Assembly (NCBI GenBank): GCA_050290185.1
Contig: JBNKHE010000008.1
Coordinates: 64,001-128,000 of the forward strand
Direction of reading: 5' to 3'
Length of the DNA: 64,000 nt
From: Pontiella sp.
GTDB taxonomy: Bacteria > Verrucomicrobiota > Kiritimatiellia > Kiritimatiellales > Pontiellaceae
Shown one piece after another: positions 30,910 through 50,130 of this stretch. The first letter of the stretch is position 1; every line of letters starts with the position of its first letter. The notes under the pieces were generated by a model that saw only the letters and a program-made list of their open reading frames with translations, was not told where the DNA came from and searched no databases. The position numbers were made by a program, and so were the translations under genes.

Positions 30910-31482
30910 TTATTTAGTCATGCGCTGCAGATCCTCATGCACGTGATACAGCTCTTCATTCACTTTCTTCATGAAATTGCAAAGTGAACACGAACTCCCG
31001 AGATAAATACTCCCACATGAATTGCACTGGGAATAATTGTTTTTGTATTCGGGATGGGTATGTTTTTCGGGGGCATACTCCGGGTGGTTATGGTCTGTAG
31101 GCGCATATTCATTGTGGTCATGAGAAACAGAAGCATACTCGGAATGTTCATGATCCATGGGAGCGTACCCGGAATGTTCATGCACCATGGGAGCATAATT
31201 GGAATGTTCATGATCCAGAAGGGCATACTCGGAATGCCCATGGGCGAGGGCAGCGTACTCGGCGTGTTCGTGGTCTAAAAATGCATATTCAGAATGATTG
31301 TGATTTTGATCGGCTTTGATGCATGCAGGGCAGTGATCGCCCCTGTATAGAACCCTGCAAGAATCACATTCCTCAAATACAAGGGCATCTTTTGCATCGA
31401 AGGCCATTGCAGCTACATAGATAATAACGCCCCACATCAATAGGATGTTCACGAATATGGCAACTGTGGTTTTTCTGCTCAT
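30910..31482 (-). CDS. Membrane-anchored His-rich repeat protein with two CxxC-x8-CxxC motifs
   Basis: GGAG RBS; N-terminal TM helix; CDSC...CPAC, nine HxHxxY units at 10-aa period, CNSC...CSLC. Confidence 0.8.
   Translation of the reverse strand: MSRKTTVAIFVNILLMWGVIIYVAAMAFDAKDALVFEECDSCRVLYRGDHCPACIKADQNHNHSEYAFLDHEHAEYAALAHGHSEYALLDHEHSNYAPMVHEHSGYAPMDHEHSEYASVSHDHNEYAPTDHNHPEYAPEKHTHPEYKNNYSQCNSCGSIYLGSSCSLCNFMKKVNEELYHVHEDLQRMTK
31045..31302 (-). repeat. 30-nt coding tandem repeat, about 9 units
   Basis: Recurrent 'gcatactc ggaatgttca tg' and variants at 30-nt period. Confidence 0.85.
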
Positions 31483-32715: not shown

Positions 32716-33158
32716 TGATTGCGATTGTTGCCCGGTCGGTAAACGGCATCATCGGAAAGGACGGCGGCTTGCCGTGGCGCTGCAAGGGCGATCTACAGTT
32801 TTTCAAGCGTACCACGATGGGGCGGAAAATTGTGGTTGGCCGCACCACCTTTGAAGGACTACCGCCGTTGAAAGGGCGTGAAATCTTTGTGCTGACCCGC
32901 AATCCGTCCGTACGTTTTGAGGGGGGCACCGCCGTTTCCAATCCCGTTGACGTTCCGGCCGATGCCATCGTATGCGGCGGCGCGGCGATTTATGACCTGA
33001 TGATCCCGCAGTGCGACCGGTTGCTGGTGACTACGGTGAAACAAGAGGTCGAGGGCGATACCTTCTTCAATGCCCAATGGCTGGATGGATTCGAACCGGC
33101 GGAAACCCTCGAAGAGACCGCTGAATATTCGATTGTTTCCTACCGACGATCGGTCTGA
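32715..33158 (+). CDS. folA: Dihydrofolate reductase
   Basis: IGKDGGLPW, DLQFFK, VGRTTF, PLKGR, GGAAIY, EGDTFF; TAATG coupling to thyA. Confidence 0.95.
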   Translation: MIAIVARSVNGIIGKDGGLPWRCKGDLQFFKRTTMGRKIVVGRTTFEGLPPLKGREIFVLTRNPSVRFEGGTAVSNPVDVPADAIVCGGAAIYDLMIPQCDRLLVTTVKQEVEGDTFFNAQWLDGFEPAETLEETAEYSIVSYRRSV

Positions 33159-33310
33159 TCGGCGTGTAACGCGAGTGGGACAAAGAATAATCAACTGGGC
33201 AAAGCGTGCCACAGGTATTCGCTTAAAATGACGACCCGAGATGAAGTCGAGAGAGGCTCCGCATCTGCGGGCAACGAAGTGGCAAATAATAGAACGGGCA
33301 CTTTTCCACG

Positions 33311-36949: not shown

Positions 36950-37095
36950 CCGCAGTGCGACCGGTTGCTGGTGACCACGGTGAAGTCACCCGTCGAGGGT
37001 GATACCTTCTTCAGCGGCCAGACGGTTTTAAGCCGGCGGAAATCATCGAGGAGACCGATGAATATTCGATCGTCTCCTACCGGAGATCGGTCTGA
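36950..37095 (+). pseudogene. folA: Decayed copy of the folA 3' end
   Basis: Aligns with 33006-33158 (PQCDRLLVTTVK...EGDTFF...EYSIVSYRRSV*), with many third-position changes and a 7-nt deletion. Confidence 0.88.
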
Positions 37096-37275
37096 TTTCC
37101 TGCCCCATCAGGTTTCAAAAGCCGCCCTTTCCGGGCGGGTCAAGGCGGTGCCATTCAGGGTTGACACCATGGGTGTTCAAGATAAATTTATACACTGACT
37201 CTTTATGTTCAATGCGAGAAGGATACGCTCGATGTAAGTGAGATGAATCGATTAGAAAAACTATAGGGGGGTAAG

Positions 37276-38636: not shown

Positions 38637-38718
38637 GCGCATGGTTGACATTGGCCCCGGAAAGCGCATCAATGCGCATCACTTTTGAGAAAATGTGATC
38701 ATCGGGAGTGATGCGCAT
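38637..38718 (+). promoter_or_regulatory. TTGACA promoter element, four GCGCAT motifs and an RBS-masking inverted repeat
   Basis: TTGACA 38645-38650; ATGCGCATCACT 38672-38683 / AGTGATGCGCAT 38707-38718, extendable by G-U pairs over the GGGAG Shine-Dalgarno. Confidence 0.55.
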
Positions 38719-39898
38719 GTCGACGTTTGAGGGAACAGGGATCAGGAATCTGAAGCTGCGGGGCGGTATCTACTACTGGCGGCAGCGGATTGGTGGCGTC
38801 CAATACTCTGAATCACTTCAGACCGGTAACCGTGAAGATGCATTGAAAAGGATGTCCGAAAAAGTGGACGCCGTGAAAAACGGGCAGGGGTTAAAGGAGA
38901 GAAAAATGACGAAAGCAAAAGAGACCAATAGCGAAGCCGCGGATAAGAGCAAGGGCTGGGTAACGTTCGATCCGAATCTGAAGATTTTGGACTGCACCGT
39001 GCGCGACGGCGGGCTTTGCAATCAGCATCAGTTTCCCGAAGGATTCTTTGGCGATATCTACAAGACGTGCGTGGCCGCTGGCATCGACTATATGGAAGTG
39101 GGCTACAAGGCGGATAAGGCCCTGTTTGCCGGCAAGGGTTTCGGCCCGTGGAAATATTGCGACGAGGATGATATCCGCCGCGAAGTGGGCGACAATGATA
39201 CCGGTCTGAAGCTTTCCGTTATGGCCGATACCGGCCGGACCAATCCGTCCGATCTGCTTCCAAGAAGTGAAAGCGTGATCGATCTGGTTCGTGTGGCGAC
39301 TTATATTCACCAGATTCCGGCGGCGTTGGAGCTGGTGAAGGATGCCAAGAACAAGGGCTACGAGGTCGCGCTCAATCTGATGGCGGTATCGACTGTGCCG
39401 GACTACGAGCTGGACAACGGGCTGGATGTTATTTCCGGAGTGGAGGAGATCGATTTTCTCTACGTGGTCGATAGCTTTGGCTCGCTCTACTACGAGCAGG
39501 TCGACGATCTGATCAAGCGCTACAAGGAAACCGGCAAGACGCTTGGTATCCATGCGCACAACAACCAGCAGCTGGCCTACGCCAACACCATCCATGCGGC
39601 GATCAACGGCGTGAAGCTGCTCGATACCACCATGATGGGCATGGGTCGTGGAGCGGGCAACTGCGCCACCGAGCTGTTGGTCGGTTTTCTCAAGAACCCG
39701 AAGTTCAACCTGCGTCCGATTCTCCAGTTCGTGCAGGACACCATGTTCCCGCTCAGCCAGCAGATCGACTGGGGCTACAGCATTCCCTACATGATCACCG
39801 GGCACTACAACGAGCATCCGCGCTCGGCCATTGCGCTGCGCGATGGGGATCGCAAGGATGATTATGTCGGCTTCTACGACGAAATCGCGAATCCGTGA
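38717..39898 (+). CDS. DRE-TIM metallolyase (4-hydroxy-2-oxovalerate aldolase-like) with in-frame N-terminal arm-type DNA-binding-like segment; alternative start at 38906
   Basis: LDCTVRDGG, MEVGY, VDSFGS, HAHNNQQLA, GMGRGAGNC; strong AAGGAG before ATG 38906. Confidence 0.85.
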   Translation: MSTFEGTGIRNLKLRGGIYYWRQRIGGVQYSESLQTGNREDALKRMSEKVDAVKNGQGLKERKMTKAKETNSEAADKSKGWVTFDPNLKILDCTVRDGGLCNQHQFPEGFFGDIYKTCVAAGIDYMEVGYKADKALFAGKGFGPWKYCDEDDIRREVGDNDTGLKLSVMADTGRTNPSDLLPRSESVIDLVRVATYIHQIPAALELVKDAKNKGYEVALNLMAVSTVPDYELDNGLDVISGVEEIDFLYVVDSFGSLYYEQVDDLIKRYKETGKTLGIHAHNNQQLAYANTIHAAINGVKLLDTTMMGMGRGAGNCATELLVGFLKNPKFNLRPILQFVQDTMFPLSQQIDWGYSIPYMITGHYNEHPRSAIALRDGDRKDDYVGFYDEIANP

Positions 39899-43503: not shown

Positions 43504-43530
43504 AAAAAGGGGGCATGTGCCCCCTTTTTT
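43504..43530 (+). terminator. Intrinsic (bidirectional) terminator after trpB
   Basis: AAAAAGGGGGCA-tg-TGCCCCCTTTTTT. Confidence 0.8.
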
Positions 43531-43652
43531 ATTTCATGGGGTTACGAGATATGGTTGCAGGCTTATTTTCTTCAATAAGAATTGTTTTGAGTTTCATTAT
43601 TTACAGGAAAAAGTGCAATGTCTGCCGGTCGGGAAACGTTTACAGGAATGAT

Positions 43653-43820
43653 ATGATGAAAATAGGAAAGCACAGGATGAACGGCAAAAGCGGCCAGGTT
43701 ATGCTGGAGTATGTTGTTGCCATCGGTGTTTTTCTCGCCCTTGTGGGGATATGCGCGGTATTGCTCTATGTTTTCCGTGCGTATGGCAACCGGGTGATTG
43801 ATATCATTGCTGTTTCCTAA
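43653..43820 (+). CDS. Flp-type prepilin-like small protein
   Basis: KSG|QVMLEY followed by a hydrophobic helix (class III signal, Glu+5, Tyr+6). Confidence 0.7.
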   Translation: MMKIGKHRMNGKSGQVMLEYVVAIGVFLALVGICAVLLYVFRAYGNRVIDIIAVS

Positions 43821-43862
43821 GCATTTCGGCGGACACAATCTTGGAACCCTAGGAGGAAGTAG

Positions 43863-44090
43863 ATGAAGACGTTCCCAAAACGTAAGGCCGGTCAGGCCAT
43901 GGTTGAGTATATCATTATTGTCGTCGTTATTGCGATTGCCGCTCTGGTGATCTTTGGCATGTTTGGCGACACGATCCAGAAAAAGCTGGGCGGAGCAGTC
44001 GACCAGCTAGAGGGCGATTCTTCCGGCAGCGATCAAGTGCAGTCGTCGAAGGGCTATCTTGAGGATCTGGGCGACGGCAATACGAAATAA
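43863..44090 (+). CDS. flp: Flp family major pilin
   Basis: AGGAGG RBS; KAG|QAMVEY Flp motif; 75 aa. Confidence 0.88.
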   Translation: MKTFPKRKAGQAMVEYIIIVVVIAIAALVIFGMFGDTIQKKLGGAVDQLEGDSSGSDQVQSSKGYLEDLGDGNTK

Positions 44091-44106
44091 TAATCGAGGA
44101 TGATCT

Positions 44107-44772
44107 GTGCCGTCTAGTTTCCAGCGCAAGCAAGGCTCCGCGATGGTGGAGTCCTGCCTCGTCATTGCCTTGCTATGCGTGGTGCTGTTCATGATGTTGC
44201 AGGTTTCGTATGTGGTCAGTTCTCGAAACATCATCAGCTATGCCAGCATTGCCGCCGCGCGGGCGGCTGCGGTGGGCTTGGATGAGGACATGGTCAAAAC
44301 GGTCGTGCATTATGCCACCATTCCAACCGCTGGCCCTATGATTTTTCCTGATCCGAAGGTGTTCAGGAAATACCGGAATGAGGGCAATACCGTAGGATCG
44401 CAATGGGACTATGCCCTGTCCTCTTCTACGGAGCCCCGATCGGAGCGCGGCGAGTATGAGGTGGCCATGCGGACGGAATTCCACCGAAGGGATTATCCCT
44501 TGGCGGTGCTGGCCTATGAGAATTGGTCCCCGGAGGGGGAGGCGGAGGTCTATTCTGACTTCACCGATGACGACTATAACGAGGAGATTCTGGAGGTCAC
44601 CGTTTCGCAGAAGCTTCCCTTGACGTATCCCTTTTCCCGCGTGTTTTGGGGGCACCTTCCCTTGGTTAAAGTCAGCCGCGGCGGGCGGACCGAGGAGTTT
44701 CCGTCCAAGCAGATCGATGCCACGTCCTATATCGAAAACCATGCTAGGTTTTATTTAAAAAGAAACTATTAA
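44107..44772 (+). CDS. TadE-like minor pilin
   Basis: QG|SAMVE, TM helix, YASIAAARAA. Confidence 0.8.
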   Translation: MPSSFQRKQGSAMVESCLVIALLCVVLFMMLQVSYVVSSRNIISYASIAAARAAAVGLDEDMVKTVVHYATIPTAGPMIFPDPKVFRKYRNEGNTVGSQWDYALSSSTEPRSERGEYEVAMRTEFHRRDYPLAVLAYENWSPEGEAEVYSDFTDDDYNEEILEVTVSQKLPLTYPFSRVFWGHLPLVKVSRGGRTEEFPSKQIDATSYIENHARFYLKRNY

Positions 44773-44811
44773 AGGAAACTCGATCCCACGGATCGGGAGC
44801 ACACATCGTCC

Positions 44812-46323
44812 ATGCATAAAAACCACCACCTGAAATCAGGACAGGCGATCATCTTTCTGATGGTTGTTGTTGTGATTGGGCTGTTTGTGGTGATCTGGAA
44901 CTTTGATCTGCACCGGATCATCACCGCCAAGGTTCAGGTGCGCAATGCCGCAGATGCCGCGGCCATGGCCGGTGCGCGCTGGCAGGGCGTTACCTTGAAT
45001 ATGATCGGCGACCTGAATCTCATTCAGGCAGCCATCTTGACGGAAGCCTATGCCAACAACGATGATCTCCACGAATTCGAGGTGCCGCCCGAGGTTCTCG
45101 ATTTGCACGATCTTCGTAACCGACTGTGTCTGTTTGGGCCGCTGGCGGCGTTTTCGGTTGCCCAGCAAGCCGCTTTTGACAACGGCGCATTCAATGATCC
45201 GGAACTCGCCGCCGACCTGCAGTGGTTGGCGGAGGAGTTTATGAAAATACACGGCTCTCCTTATAACAATCTATCCTATGAATATTACGGGGAACTTTTG
45301 GCGAATATCGTTGCTCATGGGGTTGCCGTCAGTTCCTACACGGTCCAGTTTCCGGATCATCCGCTGACGCAGGAAAAATTTTATACGGGCATTGCCTATG
45401 CGTTGGGCGGTGTGTGGTGTGGTCTGGAGAACTATGAATATGAGCTGGAGCACTATGAGGGTGTCGACAGCTGGTCTAAGCTGGATACAGAAATCGGTGT
45501 TTATCGCATGCTGGATCTCAAGCTGCGCGAATTTCGTACCATGGCCGCCGGAACGGAGGAAAATATCTGGCCTCCGCCTCGCCCGGGAACGGCTATGTTT
45601 GATAAGGATTGGCAGGAGTTTCTGGACTATGTCAGGGCCGACGAGCGGGGAATCTTTGCAAGCTTTCCGGGGTCTGACGCCAGTCTTTTACTAGAAAGCA
45701 TGGTTCCCTATAATCCGACAGAAGATATCCAATGGCATGTTTTCAGCGGAGCATGGCTGCGCACGTGGCCTCAGCCGCGCGATGGAGAAGACGATCTGGA
45801 AGACGACAAGGATCAGGACCGGTTTCCCATCTGGGCGGAAGTTCAGGACAAGTATAACTATATAGGTGCCGAGACGGGCGTCGGCATCTCCATGCCGGTG
45901 CATCGAGGCATTCTGGCCACTTCATCCCGGGAAACCGTGGATCTGGAGTATCAGGCCAAGGCCAAGCCCTTTGGCTATTTTGAAGGCGCAGCCCAGGATT
46001 CGCCGCCCTATTATCTCGGCTTCGTTTTCCCGGTGTTCACGGATGTCCGACTCATTCATTCCGAGATCGGCGACAAGCAGGTTCCCACCGAATTTTTCCG
46101 GCATGTTCTTCGCCATCTGGATGCCTATCTGGAAGGCGGGCCGGACGCGCTCAATCCCACTTGCCATTATTGTCAACTGCTGAAGGCATGGGAAACGCTT
46201 GATCGGGAAGCGGGCCTCGAGTGGCTCGAAGACGCCGAGGATATGGATGACAATCCCTGCGATCCGGATGACGACGGTTCAGAATATGAAGGGCTGATAG
46301 GAGGGGCACGCCGTGGATCGTAA
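44812..46323 (+). CDS. TadG-like pilus tip protein
   Basis: SG|QAI, TM helix, VRNAADAAAMAGA Tad motif; acidic C-terminus. Confidence 0.78.
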   Translation: MHKNHHLKSGQAIIFLMVVVVIGLFVVIWNFDLHRIITAKVQVRNAADAAAMAGARWQGVTLNMIGDLNLIQAAILTEAYANNDDLHEFEVPPEVLDLHDLRNRLCLFGPLAAFSVAQQAAFDNGAFNDPELAADLQWLAEEFMKIHGSPYNNLSYEYYGELLANIVAHGVAVSSYTVQFPDHPLTQEKFYTGIAYALGGVWCGLENYEYELEHYEGVDSWSKLDTEIGVYRMLDLKLREFRTMAAGTEENIWPPPRPGTAMFDKDWQEFLDYVRADERGIFASFPGSDASLLLESMVPYNPTEDIQWHVFSGAWLRTWPQPRDGEDDLEDDKDQDRFPIWAEVQDKYNYIGAETGVGISMPVHRGILATSSRETVDLEYQAKAKPFGYFEGAAQDSPPYYLGFVFPVFTDVRLIHSEIGDKQVPTEFFRHVLRHLDAYLEGGPDALNPTCHYCQLLKAWETLDREAGLEWLEDAEDMDDNPCDPDDDGSEYEGLIGGARRGS

Positions 46324-46960
46324 ACACATGCTCCTTTGTCCCGGTCGAGCAAGACAGGCCCTTCGGCCCGCTTCCTCCTCCGCCACACGAAGTGAGGCGG
46401 GGTATAGCCGGCAGCAAATCGATAACGCAACAGCGGGACGATCAGGGCAGGCGATGGCGGAGCTGCTGGTCGGGCTGGTTTGCATCATGCTCCTCGTGGC
46501 TGGCTTGCAACAGGTTTCGATCCTTTCGCAAAAGGGATTTCTTGCGATGAACAACGCCCGTCATGCAATGGCTCTTCAGTACGCCGAAGATCCACCGACC
46601 CAATGGCCGCGGTTTAATTTTTCCAACCCAACCCAACCCGGTTCCGATGGGGAGCATTTAACGGCCGACGACCGGAAATCCGGGGGAGATGACACGTTCT
46701 ATCAGGATAACAATGGCTATCTCGACATGGTCTTTGACGATAATCTGGAAGGGCATCTGCTCGAAGCGGGCCGGATAAGCCCCCATGTCGACCTGAAATA
46801 CAGTGGCGGTGTGTTCAGCACGACTACGGCGCTCGATATGATGCATACCGCGGGGCATGAGTCGGCCGATACCGTTCTGTTCATGGATAAGGTGCTTGGC
46901 CGCGACCATATCCTTCTGAACCATGATTTATGGATGCCTAGATGGGATGCGATACCATGA
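46313..46960 (+). CDS. TadE/TadF-like minor pilin (start uncertain)
   Basis: RSG|QAMAEL followed by a hydrophobic helix; long atypical leader. Confidence 0.72.
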   Translation: MDRKHMLLCPGRARQALRPASSSATRSEAGYSRQQIDNATAGRSGQAMAELLVGLVCIMLLVAGLQQVSILSQKGFLAMNNARHAMALQYAEDPPTQWPRFNFSNPTQPGSDGEHLTADDRKSGGDDTFYQDNNGYLDMVFDDNLEGHLLEAGRISPHVDLKYSGGVFSTTTALDMMHTAGHESADTVLFMDKVLGRDHILLNHDLWMPRWDAIP

Positions 46961-47652
46961 TGCGCGGTCAATCCTCCATATTGCTGATAGCATTGGTCGC
47001 CGTCCTCTTGCCGTGGGCGGCGAAAAGCCGGGTATTCCAGATCGTTGGCAATACGCGCGGTCGTTTGAATGTTGTCGGCCTGCCCTGGGAAGAGGCCTAC
47101 ACAACCACGATGAACGTCAACGGGCGTAAAAACGATGTGGTGGTTTATTCCGCGAACTATTCCGAGCCGGTTGCTGAGCAGTTGAAGGCCCAGTTTGAGC
47201 TGCAGGGTGCGACTGTGAAGATACGCAAGAGTCCGGATGGAGGGGCTATGGGGGTTGCCAAATGGGATGGCGGCGAAGCCCGCATTCTGGTGCTCGCGCC
47301 TGAAACCCCACCAAACCACCTGGTATTTTTGTTCTATCCTGAGGCGGAGGCTTCAAACAAACCGAAATCCCCGGTGCCGGAATATCCGCGCGGCCGCACC
47401 ACGAACACGGTGTTCAGCGAGGAGACCAAGGCGTTTTGTAAAACGCTTACGACGGAGGATTCGGTCATGCAGGTGCAGCGTTTTTATGTTGATGCGTTGG
47501 CTCGCGAGGGCTGGACGCCGGTACTGCCGATGCGGCTTTCTGGAGGAATGACCTATTTCCACCGGAAGGAGCAAACCTGCTGCGTGCTGGCGAGCAGACA
47601 TAATAACGGCGCGACAGTGGTGACGGTGCTTGTTAGGGATGTCGGGTTTTGA
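46957..47652 (+). CDS. Exported hypothetical protein in the Tad operon
   Basis: ATGA overlap with the previous gene; N-terminal hydrophobic segment; VQRFYVDALAREGW motif. Confidence 0.7.
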   Translation: MMRGQSSILLIALVAVLLPWAAKSRVFQIVGNTRGRLNVVGLPWEEAYTTTMNVNGRKNDVVVYSANYSEPVAEQLKAQFELQGATVKIRKSPDGGAMGVAKWDGGEARILVLAPETPPNHLVFLFYPEAEASNKPKSPVPEYPRGRTTNTVFSEETKAFCKTLTTEDSVMQVQRFYVDALAREGWTPVLPMRLSGGMTYFHRKEQTCCVLASRHNNGATVVTVLVRDVGF

Positions 47653-47680
47653 TACCTATTGGGAATATTGCGAGGTCTGT

Positions 47681-48472
47681 ATGAAGAATAAATTGATAAT
47701 GATTGTGGCGCTGTTGATGGCTGCCTTGGCATTCTGGTTGAACTGGAGCTATCTGAAGAAGCAAAAGGAAGATTTGCTCAAGGGCCATAAGACCATCAGG
47801 GTAATTGCGGCCAAGCAGGATCTTCCGGCCATGACGGTCTTAACCATTGCAGACCTCGGAGAGATCGAAGTATTTGAATCCTCCGTCGGGCAAAATGTTT
47901 TTCGTCAGGAAGATCTCAGTTCGCTGCTGGGTAAAAAACTGATTTATCCCGTGCGCAAGCGTGACCCAATTCTGTGGACGCAGGTCGACATGCCCCGCCG
48001 GCGGGGAAGCGGTCTTTCCGCGGCCGTTGAAAAGGGGAAGCGCGCCTTGTCGCTGGCCATATCGGGAGCACAGGGCGTTGCCGGCATGGTTCAGCCCAAC
48101 GATCACGTCGATATCATGGGTACCTTCACGTTCCCGTCGCCGACCAATCCCACGCAGGTTGAATCCGTCACCCTGATGCTGTTGCAGAATGTGACGGTGC
48201 TGGCCGCAGGCTCGCAGGTGGCGGGGCAGGCCGAAAACGGCCGGCGTTCCGGTGGGGGCTACAGCACCATCACCTTCTCGGTTAAGCCGATGGAGGCGGA
48301 GATCCTCGTCTTTGCCCAGCAGGCCCGCGGGCAGCTCTACCTGTCGCTTCGCAATCCGGACGACCGCAATGCCGAATCGGAAATTCCTTCCGTCAATTTC
48401 GACTATATTGAATCCATCCTCAAGCAGCTCAACGAGCAGCGTCAGCAGGAAATCCGCTCGGAGCCCCGATAA
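47681..48472 (+). CDS. cpaB: Flp pilus assembly protein CpaB/RcpC
   Basis: TM helix, SAF domain VIAAKQDLP, GKRALSL, GVAGMVQPNDHVD, LLQNVTVLA, LSLRNPDD. Confidence 0.92.
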   Translation: MKNKLIMIVALLMAALAFWLNWSYLKKQKEDLLKGHKTIRVIAAKQDLPAMTVLTIADLGEIEVFESSVGQNVFRQEDLSSLLGKKLIYPVRKRDPILWTQVDMPRRRGSGLSAAVEKGKRALSLAISGAQGVAGMVQPNDHVDIMGTFTFPSPTNPTQVESVTLMLLQNVTVLAAGSQVAGQAENGRRSGGGYSTITFSVKPMEAEILVFAQQARGQLYLSLRNPDDRNAESEIPSVNFDYIESILKQLNEQRQQEIRSEPR

Positions 48473-48477
48473 GTTCT

Positions 48478-50130
48478 ATGTCATCCATACTCCAGATTCT
48501 AATCAACCACGATCAGCGTGATCTCCAGACCCTCGATGCCAACTACGGGGTGTACCTGATTGGCGCGGACGCCTCATGCCGCATCGTACTTGATGATGGC
48601 AGCGTAGAGGATGCCCATGCCGTCCTGACCCTGATGGAGGATGAATCCTATATCGAGGATCTGATGGGGACGGGCGTTTTCGTGGCGGGCGAACGGATCA
48701 AGACCCGGAGGCAGGTTTTCCCCGATGTCCCGATGCAGATCGGCAACTATACCCTCGTGTTCAAGCCGGCAGGCGATGCCGGCCAGAGTCTAGTGGAAGC
48801 TCCGAAGTCCGTGGAGGAGGTCTTTAAGCCGCAGGTGCAGGAGCGCCACGTATCGCGTACTCAGGCCGTCAAGCAGCAGATCCATACCGAGCTGGTGGAT
48901 CGGCTGGATCTGAAGCGGTTGAGCATGAGCAAGTTTCAGGAAAGCGATCTGCAGAAGAAGATCCGCGCAACGCTCACGGAGATCATCGATGAAATCCGCT
49001 CGCGGCTGCCCGAGGGGATTGATCCGGACCGCCTGCTTAAGGAAATCTTTGATGAATCGGTCGGCCTCGGTCCGCTGGAAGACATGCTCGAGGATGAATC
49101 GATCACGGAAATCATGGTAAACGGTCCGAGCCAGGTTTATGTGGAGCGCTCCGGGCGGTTGGAACTGACCGACTGCACCTTTATCAGCGACACCTCGGTA
49201 AATTCGATCATTGAACGCATTGTATCTCCGATCGGACGGCGCATTGACGAAAGCCAGCCCTATGTAGATGCGCGTCTGGCTGATGGTTCCCGCGTGAACG
49301 CTATTATCCACCCGTTGTCGCTGGTGGGTCCATGCATCACGATCCGAAAGTTCTCCAAGGAGCCGTTCACGGTGAACGATCTCATCGGATTCGGGACGCT
49401 CAATGCCGAAATTGCCGAGTTTATGCGCGTCTGCGTGCTGCTGCGAAAAAACATTATTGTTTCGGGCGGTACGGGCTCCGGGAAGACCACACTGTTGAAT
49501 GTTCTTTCGAGCTACCTGCCCAGCAGCGAGCGCATTCTGACCATCGAGGATGCCGCCGAACTGCGCCTTACGCAGCAGCATATTGTCCGGCTGGAAGCCC
49601 GGCCGGCCAACATCGAGGGACGCGGTGCCATCACAATCCGCGACCTCGTGCGCAATGCGTTACGCATGCGCCCCGACCGCATTGTGGTGGGCGAGTGCCG
49701 CGGAGCCGAAGCGCTCGACATGCTGCAAGCCATGAATACCGGCCACGAAGGGTCGCTAACGACCATCCATGCCAACACCCCGCGCGATGCTCTGGCCCGT
49801 CTTGAAACAATGGTGCTGATGTCCGGCATGGATCTGCCCATCCGCGCCATCCGCGAGCAAGTGGCCTCGGCCGTGCATCTGGTTTGCCAGATTGCCCGCT
49901 TCAGCGACGGCTCGCGCCGCGTCAGCCGGATTACCGAGGTTACGGGCATGGAGCGTGACATGATCACGATGCAGGATCTGTTTGAATACAAGCAGACGGG
50001 TGTCGATGAAAACGGTCGCGTGCAGGGATATCTGCGTCCGACCGGAACCGTGCCGACATTTGTTGAGGAAATTGGTGTTCGCGGCATAAACTTTGATCGC
50101 AATATTTTTGATCCAAGGAAGGGGCGTTAA
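48478..50130 (+). CDS. cpaF: Tad pilus ATPase CpaF/TadA with N-terminal FHA-like domain
   Basis: GLGPLE, EIMVNG, Walker [36 protein letters not shown]. Confidence 0.95.

Follow-up and report, generated by a model that had tools for sequence, protein, structure and literature searches.

PutA, BirA and NadR are enzyme-repressor fusions, or trigger enzymes, and genes with two in-frame starts are also known, among them those of the Tn5 transposase and its inhibitor, infB and cheA; in Tn5 it is the DNA-binding end that is missing from the short form. Vibrio fha is reportedly a further gene with two in-frame starts. Integrases can likewise control their own genes: IntS of KplE1 is described as a repressor of its own gene whose arm site P'1 overlaps the -10, autoregulation is predicted for 61.5% of 1273 tRNA-linked integrases, and the single P' mutations reported in the same source did not derepress intS (PMC2951348). 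The IntS protein of ICEMlSym is likewise stated to be negatively autoregulated (PMC11963761).

Here we describe a locus from Pontiella sp. that resembles each of these systems and departs from each of them. As far as the published descriptions of KplE1 IntS and ICEMlSym IntS go, it has, like those genes, arm-type repeats (here candidates) over its own promoter, one of them on the -10, and self-repression is expected; it differs in having no core-binding or catalytic domain, no att core and no element, the head being placed on a chromosomal enzyme and inherited across an order. As in PutA, BirA and NadR, a DNA-binding-like domain stands at the N-terminus of a metabolic enzyme and probably controls its own expression, enzyme and domain forming one selected polypeptide with a candidate operator, but the DNA-binding fold is a different one, the domain appears to come from a mobile element, the operator seems to have been imported with it, a second start would serve the headless enzyme, and there is a single target. 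As in the two-start genes (Tn5, infB, cheA, Vibrio fha), a conserved internal ribosome site is predicted to give an isoform without the N-terminal domain, the difference being that the short form here appears to be the ancestral complete enzyme and the long form the addition. Each part (integrase autorepression, enzyme-repressor fusion, two-start gene) has a precedent, and their union is new; the main texts of the open-access literature yielded no description of this fusion of an integrase head with an enzyme.

Results

The window, meaning the whole stretch of DNA analysed, comprises 64,000 nt of Pontiella sp. (GCA_050290185.1, contig JBNKHE010000008.1, positions 64,001–128,000 of the forward strand). 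Within it, 38717..39898 is a single open frame of 393 amino acids. As a preliminary description of the sequence had stated, 63 open codons precede the aldolase-like enzyme that begins at ATG 38906, GGGAG (38704–38708) lies 8 nt before ATG 38717, and a strong AAGGAG (38894–38899) lies before ATG 38906; we find this last distance to be 6 nt. The peptide quoted in that description corresponds to residues 11–45 of the long form. GTG 38708 and ATG 38711 are also in frame with 38717, which we take as the long-form start because relatives align from M-x-T-F. The features of the locus are as follows.

38645..38650, + strand: putative -35 hexamer TTGACA; a -35-like hexamer lies at the same place in relatives.
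38665..38671, + strand: box 1, CGCATCA, candidate arm-type site over the putative -10 (38667–38672); CATCA is invariant in 50 of 50 loci.
38675..38681, + strand: box 2, CGCATCA, direct repeat one helical turn past box 1, identified by spacing and core conservation.
38696..38701, + strand: degenerate central box TG(A/T)TCA (TGATCA in the window), in 33 of 35 long-spacer loci.
38704..38708, + strand: Shine-Dalgarno of the long isoform, GGGAG, running on as TGA into box 3, identified by sequence and duplex energy.
38709..38715, - strand: box 3, inverted CGCATCA (TGATGC from 38709), placed after the first Shine-Dalgarno and ahead of ATG 38717, in all 50 loci.
38717..39898, + strand: long isoform (arm-like domain, linker and enzyme), 393 aa, an open frame kept in relatives.
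38717..38881, + strand: candidate integrase-derived arm-type DNA-binding-like domain, residues 1–55, basic, with three strands and a helix (AlphaFold, DUF6538, dN/dS).
38882..38905, + strand: end of the linker with the internal Shine-Dalgarno AAGGAG (38894–38899), marked by codon bias at Lys60 and Glu61 and by low pLDDT.
38906..39898, + strand: HOA-like DRE-TIM metal-dependent enzyme, 330 aa (HMGL-like, 72.5 bits), which by itself is the short isoform and also forms the C-terminal part of the long isoform.

The N-terminal extension is a protein domain under selection. By the Nei-Gojobori method, 21 long genes (a set from which locus L007 was dropped for an internal stop) gave dN/dS values of 0.075–0.105 for residues 2–46 and 0.077–0.121 for the enzyme, and 14 disjoint pairs, drawn from 44 full-length genes after 6 of the 50 had been left out as truncated, gave 0.106 for residues 2–46, 0.073 for the enzyme and 0.48 for the linker. 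A ratio below 1 had been proposed beforehand as a check on the fusion; at about 0.1, selection on residues 2–46 is purifying, like that on the enzyme.

The internal start is under selection as well. Its ATG (codon 62–67) is retained in 49 of the 50 unique long loci, within a variable linker, and the Shine-Dalgarno ahead of it is fixed at synonymous sites, with Lys60 encoded by AAG in 40 of 41 Lys codons (53% in the enzyme part) and Glu61 by GAG in 39 of 40 Glu codons (44% in the enzyme part). Measured against a generic anti-Shine-Dalgarno sequence (no 16S tail was found in the own genome), the internal start reaches -7 kcal/mol or lower in 45 of 49 loci, compared with 6.5% of 613 other internal ATGs and with 9 of 50 at the invariant Met46; the Shine-Dalgarno of the long isoform, against the same generic sequence, has -10.1 kcal/mol in the window and a median of -9.1 over 50 loci. 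One locus, L085, has lost Met64 together with the Shine-Dalgarno codons and carries a new AAAGGAG-7 nt-ATG at codon 53, a replacement that in this single case looks compensatory. Both starts are thus predicted to be translated, and one gene probably yields the plain enzyme and a longer, self-repressing form. The long form can be missed in annotation, as in a public Pontiella desulfatans protein (P0024) annotated from the internal ATG.

The sequence relatives of the head are integrase N-termini. Residues 1–63 match DUF6538 with 25.5 bits (E 1.1e-5), under the 27-bit cut-off, and the whole protein does so with 17.8 bits. In a search of 1.84 billion representatives the domain profile gave 40 matches, the top four being fragments or chimeras of the same protein and the remainder mostly integrase N-termini (PF00589 in 8 of 38 scanned, two repetitive matches having been left out); one relative, P0135, is 48% identical over 48 residues (probability 97.5). 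A tyrosine-integrase profile matches only residues ~9–70 of the 393-aa frame, from which the core-binding and catalytic recombinase domains are absent, the remainder being a TIM barrel. AlphaFold predicts strands at residues 12–15, 18–25 and 28–33 and a helix at 39–54 (mean pLDDT 82), with pLDDT below 50 in the linker (residues 59–81); a three-stranded sheet packed on the C-terminal helix is predicted in both models. The domain has a pI of 9.9, and the leader MxTFEGTG is invariant at the long-form start.

Fold comparisons were less specific. The domain model matched lambda Int (1z1b; Z 4.4, rmsd 3.1, 51 aligned) and the HPI arm domain (3jtz; Z 4.3, rmsd 2.6, 51 aligned), both of which tie with unrelated folds, Mur ligases being at Z 4.9; Foldseek with the domain model gave no match at E 0.001, and the domain profile gave none among the sequences of solved structures. 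As to the proposed DUF6538-like integrase arm N-terminus, integrase N-termini are the nearest non-self profile matches, the DUF6538 score stays under its cut-off, and of the HMM and structure searches suggested for residues 1–63 the former gave that score while the latter does not single out arm domains. Like the solved arm domains (lambda Int 1z1b, HPI 3jtz, Tn916 1bb8) and DUF6538, the head is basic with three antiparallel strands and a helix, its relatives are integrase N-termini, and it is accompanied by tandem 7-mer repeats about one turn apart; unlike them, it lies below the DUF6538 cut-off, has weak fold scores (Z 3.5–4.4), is highly conserved rather than fast-evolving and has the invariant MxTFEGTG. 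On these sequence relationships an integrase origin of the arm-like domain is supported.

In a search of longer proteins for other fusion partners, at least 120 of 138 matches were the same enzyme or, in four that were read, its fragments. The arm-like domain also precedes GIY-YIG-like (MUG113/T5orf172) domains in P0154 and P0160, and in P0125, a protein of 112 aa from a 522-nt contig that is probably a chimera, it stands before TPR repeats.

Upstream of the long start, GCATCA repeats span 38665–38715, with the direct copies of the hexamer at 38666 and 38676, beyond what had been described before. A TTGAC-, TTGAT- or TTGC-type hexamer lies 21–22 nt before box 1 in 48 of the 50 unique long loci, so that the -10 falls on box 1. 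The hexamer at this putative -10 is CATCAT in 38 loci, CATCAA in 11, where it is a poor -10, and CATCAC in 1; a consensus promoter scanner made no call at the window promoter because the -10 is weak. Box 1 and box 2 are spaced by 10 nt (23 loci) or 11 nt (27 loci), and both cores are perfect in 47 of 50; the box script misplaced one locus, L084, whose first box is TTCATCA. From box 2 to box 3 the distance is 12–14 nt in 13 loci and 31–34 nt in 35. The central box ends 19–20 nt, or two turns, after box 2 and 6–8 nt before box 3, a gap equal to the inverted gap between box 2 and box 3 in the 13 short-spacer loci, and box spacings among the long loci vary by whole helical turns. Box 3 starts 8–12 nt before the ATG in all 50 loci, with a perfect core in 49.

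The exact three-box pattern stands directly before 45 of the 50 long genes and was found in none of 19 short-form genomes and none of 19 enzyme-less genomes; there are four other matches, two of them in genomes whose enzyme match is without its start. The tandem pair is single-copy in the own genome of 3.6 Mb. A regulon was considered and rejected, as 25 of the 35 tandem matches in 41 genomes precede the long gene, 9 fall within long open frames and the last is in an intergenic region of phage-like character. Because the boxes adjoin the domain, their joint presence and loss is partly a matter of linkage, and because box 1 lies on the -10 and box 3 on the Shine-Dalgarno, part of the conservation may be promoter or ribosome signal. 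Linkage explains the joint loss; the invariant cores among diverged spacers remain beyond it.

Other elements were seen near these promoters. Many long loci have a TCAAA-3 nt-TTTGAA palindrome ahead of the -35, and each of the 11 short loci examined has one like it, which suggests that a further factor probably works at these promoters. Those 11 short forms (L008–L015, L081–L083) carry a GCAAATAA-ATGGTT-AAAATATTCG-like motif about 60–95 nt before the start, ahead of an extended -10. In a genome without an enzyme match, a filamentous-prophage-like region (L127:1480–1600; judged by eye from a small divergent repressor-like gene and coat-like proteins) shows repeats built on TGCA along a divergent promoter, and two of these are TGCATCA.

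Similar repeats occur before related integrases. In 401 genomes of the phylum the arm-domain profile gave 29 matches outside the order, all weak; 11 of 17 loci read there have the HSLRH integrase motif, and 11 of 14 scanned adjoin a tRNA. The best of them, L149, has GCATCA and GTATCA 11 nt apart before its start, and a profile of its integrase family matched in 22 of 401 genomes of the class. From 25 such integrase loci we kept the 11 with an intact N-terminus, leaving out 14 in which it was missing or which were duplicates. Four of these 11 (L149, L167, L173 and L176), which are 25–53% identical to each other, have a tandem G(C/T)ATCA pair in the 200 nt ahead of the integrase N-terminus; since the pattern was chosen after L149 had been seen, the fair test consists of L167, L173 and L176. 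In 2000 shuffles the mean was 0.0025 loci with a tandem pair and the maximum 1, and in the own genome the pattern occurs in 1 of 2342 upstream windows, that of this gene. The three best domain-profile scorers (33.9, 24.1 and 15.2 bits) all carry the pair; seven of the 11 are without it, and L176 has it though its domain scores -0.4 bits. The layout of L173 is that of the window: TTGACA, 17 nt, CATAAT overlapped by box 1, box 2 and then TGATCA. These repeats before related integrases are the strongest sign that the boxes may be the domain's own arm-type sites and arrived with it, by which a DUF6538-like domain gains a concrete predicted target. Among viral contigs P0135 had no match and the arm domain one weak match, and a metagenome scan with P0135 gave one distant locus.

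More distant arm-domain integrases (L150–L159) have, by eye, their own tandem repeats about 10 nt apart, of the GGTGCCA/AGTACCG type, which could be used to pair arm-domain residues with site sequence. The own genome contains a separate DUF6538 integrase (L031 on G000:C7, 56 bits) with CACTTGA/TAGCTTG-like repeats upstream and without the tandem GCATCA. A tRNA-Leu(CAA) gene 80–340 nt downstream of the fusion gene (L029:2720–4120, L068, L073, L047 and others) is an integration spot; the N-termini of integrases found there weakly resemble the arm domain (E 0.008–0.04), and some of these loci have a partial tRNA duplicate. Integrases linked to this tRNA-Leu are a plausible source of the head and its sites.

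Of 89 genomes of Kiritimatiellales, an order of aquatic bacteria, 70 have the enzyme, with 71 matches: 50 long forms, 19 short forms and 2 without their start. The long form is present in all four families of the order, with named relatives in Pontiella, other Pontiellaceae, Tichowtungia and other Kiritimatiellales, and the fusion is conserved, a point that the preliminary description had proposed to check. All 19 short forms belong to the window's own genus, which makes the extension dispensable there. In a domain scan of 185,579 species genomes, all 45 loci found were fused to this DRE-TIM enzyme, and all were from Kiritimatiellales or unranked Verrucomicrobiota, apart from one labelled Victivallales. 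The enzyme itself is present in 71 of 151 genomes of the class, and 34 enzyme loci from its other orders have neither arm domain nor tandem repeat.

A quick enzyme tree (92 unique rows) places all 47 long rows inside one 58-row clade (SH-aLRT 95), with 11 short rows of the own genus nested among them. In the genomes of these 11 short loci the arm-domain profile found nothing, and the loci share another 5' module, with the extended -10. A single clean loss was rejected, since the AU test, run on the enzyme tree with 38 chosen rows, rejects one clade of long forms (p 3e-35), and L041 and L042 join a head of the own-genus type to the other enzyme type; together these indicate that 5' modules were repeatedly swapped or lost. 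Our reading is one gain at the base of the order followed by repeated swaps or losses in one genus. L007 has a TAG after about 269 codons in the enzyme part, with head and boxes intact, and may be an error, a pseudogene or a regulator-only remnant. One genome (G011; contamination estimate 8%) has two long copies, L121 and L123, 94% and 63% identical to the window protein, each with boxes.

The enzyme part matches PF00682 (HMGL-like) well above its cut-off of 29 bits. R96, D97, H279 and H281, the R-D motif and H-x-H metal ligands of DRE-TIM metallolyases, are invariant, and an enzyme with aldolase or lyase activity that depends on a metal and uses a 2-oxoacid is therefore probable. The closest solved structure is 3dxi (BVU_2661, an uncharacterised putative aldolase; TM-score 0.81, 30% identity). 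With it and with DmpG/BphI (1nvm, 4lrs, 4jn6) the enzyme shares the DRE-TIM barrel, the R-D motif and the H-x-H ligands. The His of the R-D-G-S-H motif is catalytic in DmpG/BphI. The enzyme differs from these in being only 22–23% identical to HOA, in lacking the motif His and in having no dehydrogenase partner: R-D-G-G-L, with Leu in place of that His, is invariant in 85 aligned sequences, and no acylating acetaldehyde dehydrogenase lies next door, the neighbours in the window being a trypsin-like protein and an azoreductase. Identity with 4-hydroxy-2-oxovalerate aldolase was rejected on profile scores also (TIGR03217, 97 bits with a cut-off of 286; NF006049, 107 bits with a cut-off of 229). 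A pyruvate-type aldol or related reaction, rather than that of DmpG, would fit, and the database names of relatives ('4-hydroxy 2-oxovalerate aldolase', 'nucleoid-structuring protein H-NS') are transferred labels.

Recurrent neighbours in relatives, read by eye from the top 30 clusters listed, include thyX, thyA and folA; among the clusters listed none is shared beyond the order, and the neighbours gave no substrate. In the slot upstream of the enzyme (L016–L080; by eye), thyA-folA on the same strand alternates with a divergent thyX, often after ackA and orn, an in-place displacement of the two thymidylate synthases. In the window, a decayed copy of the 3' end of folA (36950–37096 versus 33006–33159; 80% identity, frameshifted) lies between folA and the aldolase, which suggests that the genes between the folA copies were inserted with duplication of the folA tail. 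The window also contains a tad/flp pilus-like cluster at 43515–50130 (by eye: pilin-like, TadE/TadG-like and CpaB-like proteins and a CpaF-like ATPase) and, at 30910–31482, about nine tandem H-x-H-x-E/G-Y-A repeats with Cys pairs at both ends that possibly bind metal.

Discussion

The fusion, the selection on its domain and second start, the boxes, how they are phased and how unique they are, and their occurrence ahead of related integrases were all computed here. We suggest, with a probability of about 0.7, that a self-repressing integrase was the source of a single captured cassette of promoter, arm-type sites and arm-domain codons, so that the long form now acts as the repressor of its own gene and most of the enzyme is the short form. 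Recombination would have set the 5' end of such a tyrosine integrase gene in frame before the enzyme's old ribosome site, an event that we place in the ancestor of Kiritimatiellales. The internal start would then give the plain enzyme and the upstream start the enzyme with a tethered arm domain; oligomerisation of the enzyme would make the arm domains multivalent, replacing the integrase's own multimer. By binding the (C/T)GCATCA boxes, which lie in phase across the -10 and the start of transcription, the arm domains would repress their own promoter; negative feedback would keep the enzyme near a set point, and in mixed oligomers the short subunits would dilute the DNA-binding heads. That the protein binds DNA, that it represses rather than activates, its oligomeric state and its control by substrate or metal are what we infer from the computed features. 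Against this reading stand the fold matches of the arm domain, which tie with Mur ligases, the 19 genus mates that do without the module, and the stable hairpin and flank covariation in RNA considered next.

The boxes might instead act as RNA, box 2 (or box 1) pairing with box 3 to hide the first ribosome site and the basic domain binding this hairpin to control translation or the isoform ratio. Boxes 2 and 3 do fold in the window (-30.9 kcal/mol with G-U pairs, z -4.3) and in L054 (z -3.8), the domain fold resembles dsRNA-binding domains (Z 3.7–4.0), and the box-flank positions -3 and +8 covary (P 0.002–0.003 over 50 loci, uncorrected for kinship). However, the four positions next to the box core do not covary (P 0.6–1.0; C-A mismatches at -1 in 9 of 50), L044 and L055 fold weakly (z about -1.6), and the box region has no match in Rfam. 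With the conserved -35, transcription would begin within box 2, and the transcript would lack box 1 and some of box 2; direct repeats spaced by whole turns, found before integrases as well, suit a role in DNA, which makes an RNA mechanism improbable. Unlikely, too, is that the domain binds the boxes as an activator, or that another host regulator reads them while the domain docks on the barrel or tethers it to DNA. The weak -10 is as in activated promoters, the TCAAA-3 nt-TTTGAA-like element provides a further site upstream of the -35, and the MxTFEGTG leader is without an assigned role; yet sites on the -10 and the start are repressor positions, as is generally known and as the description of KplE1 also indicates (PMC2951348), and of another regulator one would expect several targets and survival in short-form genomes, whereas the pattern is nearly single-copy and missing from those genomes.

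We consider it a distant prospect that the long isoform is kept mainly to silence the integrases of incoming elements by sitting on their GCATCA arm sites, with self-regulation limiting its dose. Within the class there are elements that carry these repeats, 33 of 70 long-locus rows (counted with duplicates) have the tRNA-Leu integration spot after the gene, and the integrase family occurs in 1 of 56 other genomes of the order and 21 of 344 outside it, but this apparent difference is small and includes short-form genomes; no tandem-pair element was found in any long-form genome searched, and tight self-repression would leave little free protein. An in-frame integrase scar with only ATG 38906 in use, the other alternative raised in the preliminary description, draws on the strong internal Shine-Dalgarno, the annotation of P0024 and the viability of short forms, and is hardly credible: it is rejected by a dN/dS of about 0.1 at dS 0.7–1.5, and the extension has no stops and few length changes, all of whole codons. 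A frame broken or absent in relatives, with only 38906 used, had been named as the sign against a domesticated module; the frame is intact, under purifying selection and spread over four families, and with both starts under selection the sequences support the domesticated module giving long and short isoforms.

The capture of an integrase cassette would have consequences beyond this gene. We tentatively propose, as a possibility less likely than not, that hosts use the 5' cassette of self-repressing integrases as an off-the-shelf feedback module by attaching it to oligomeric enzymes, and that here it could act as a dosage sensor through the ratio of long to short form, tuned by substrate or metal in the barrel. 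The locus adds a selected two-start gene to the bacterial examples, and it has a cultured carrier, Pontiella sulfatireligans F21 (L044), with natural loss variants also known. How a regulator and its operator originate jointly is an old puzzle, and the locus suggests that both can arrive in one event from an integrase. If true, a new transcription factor would have been gained together with its operator in a single step, with donor elements still present in the same class.
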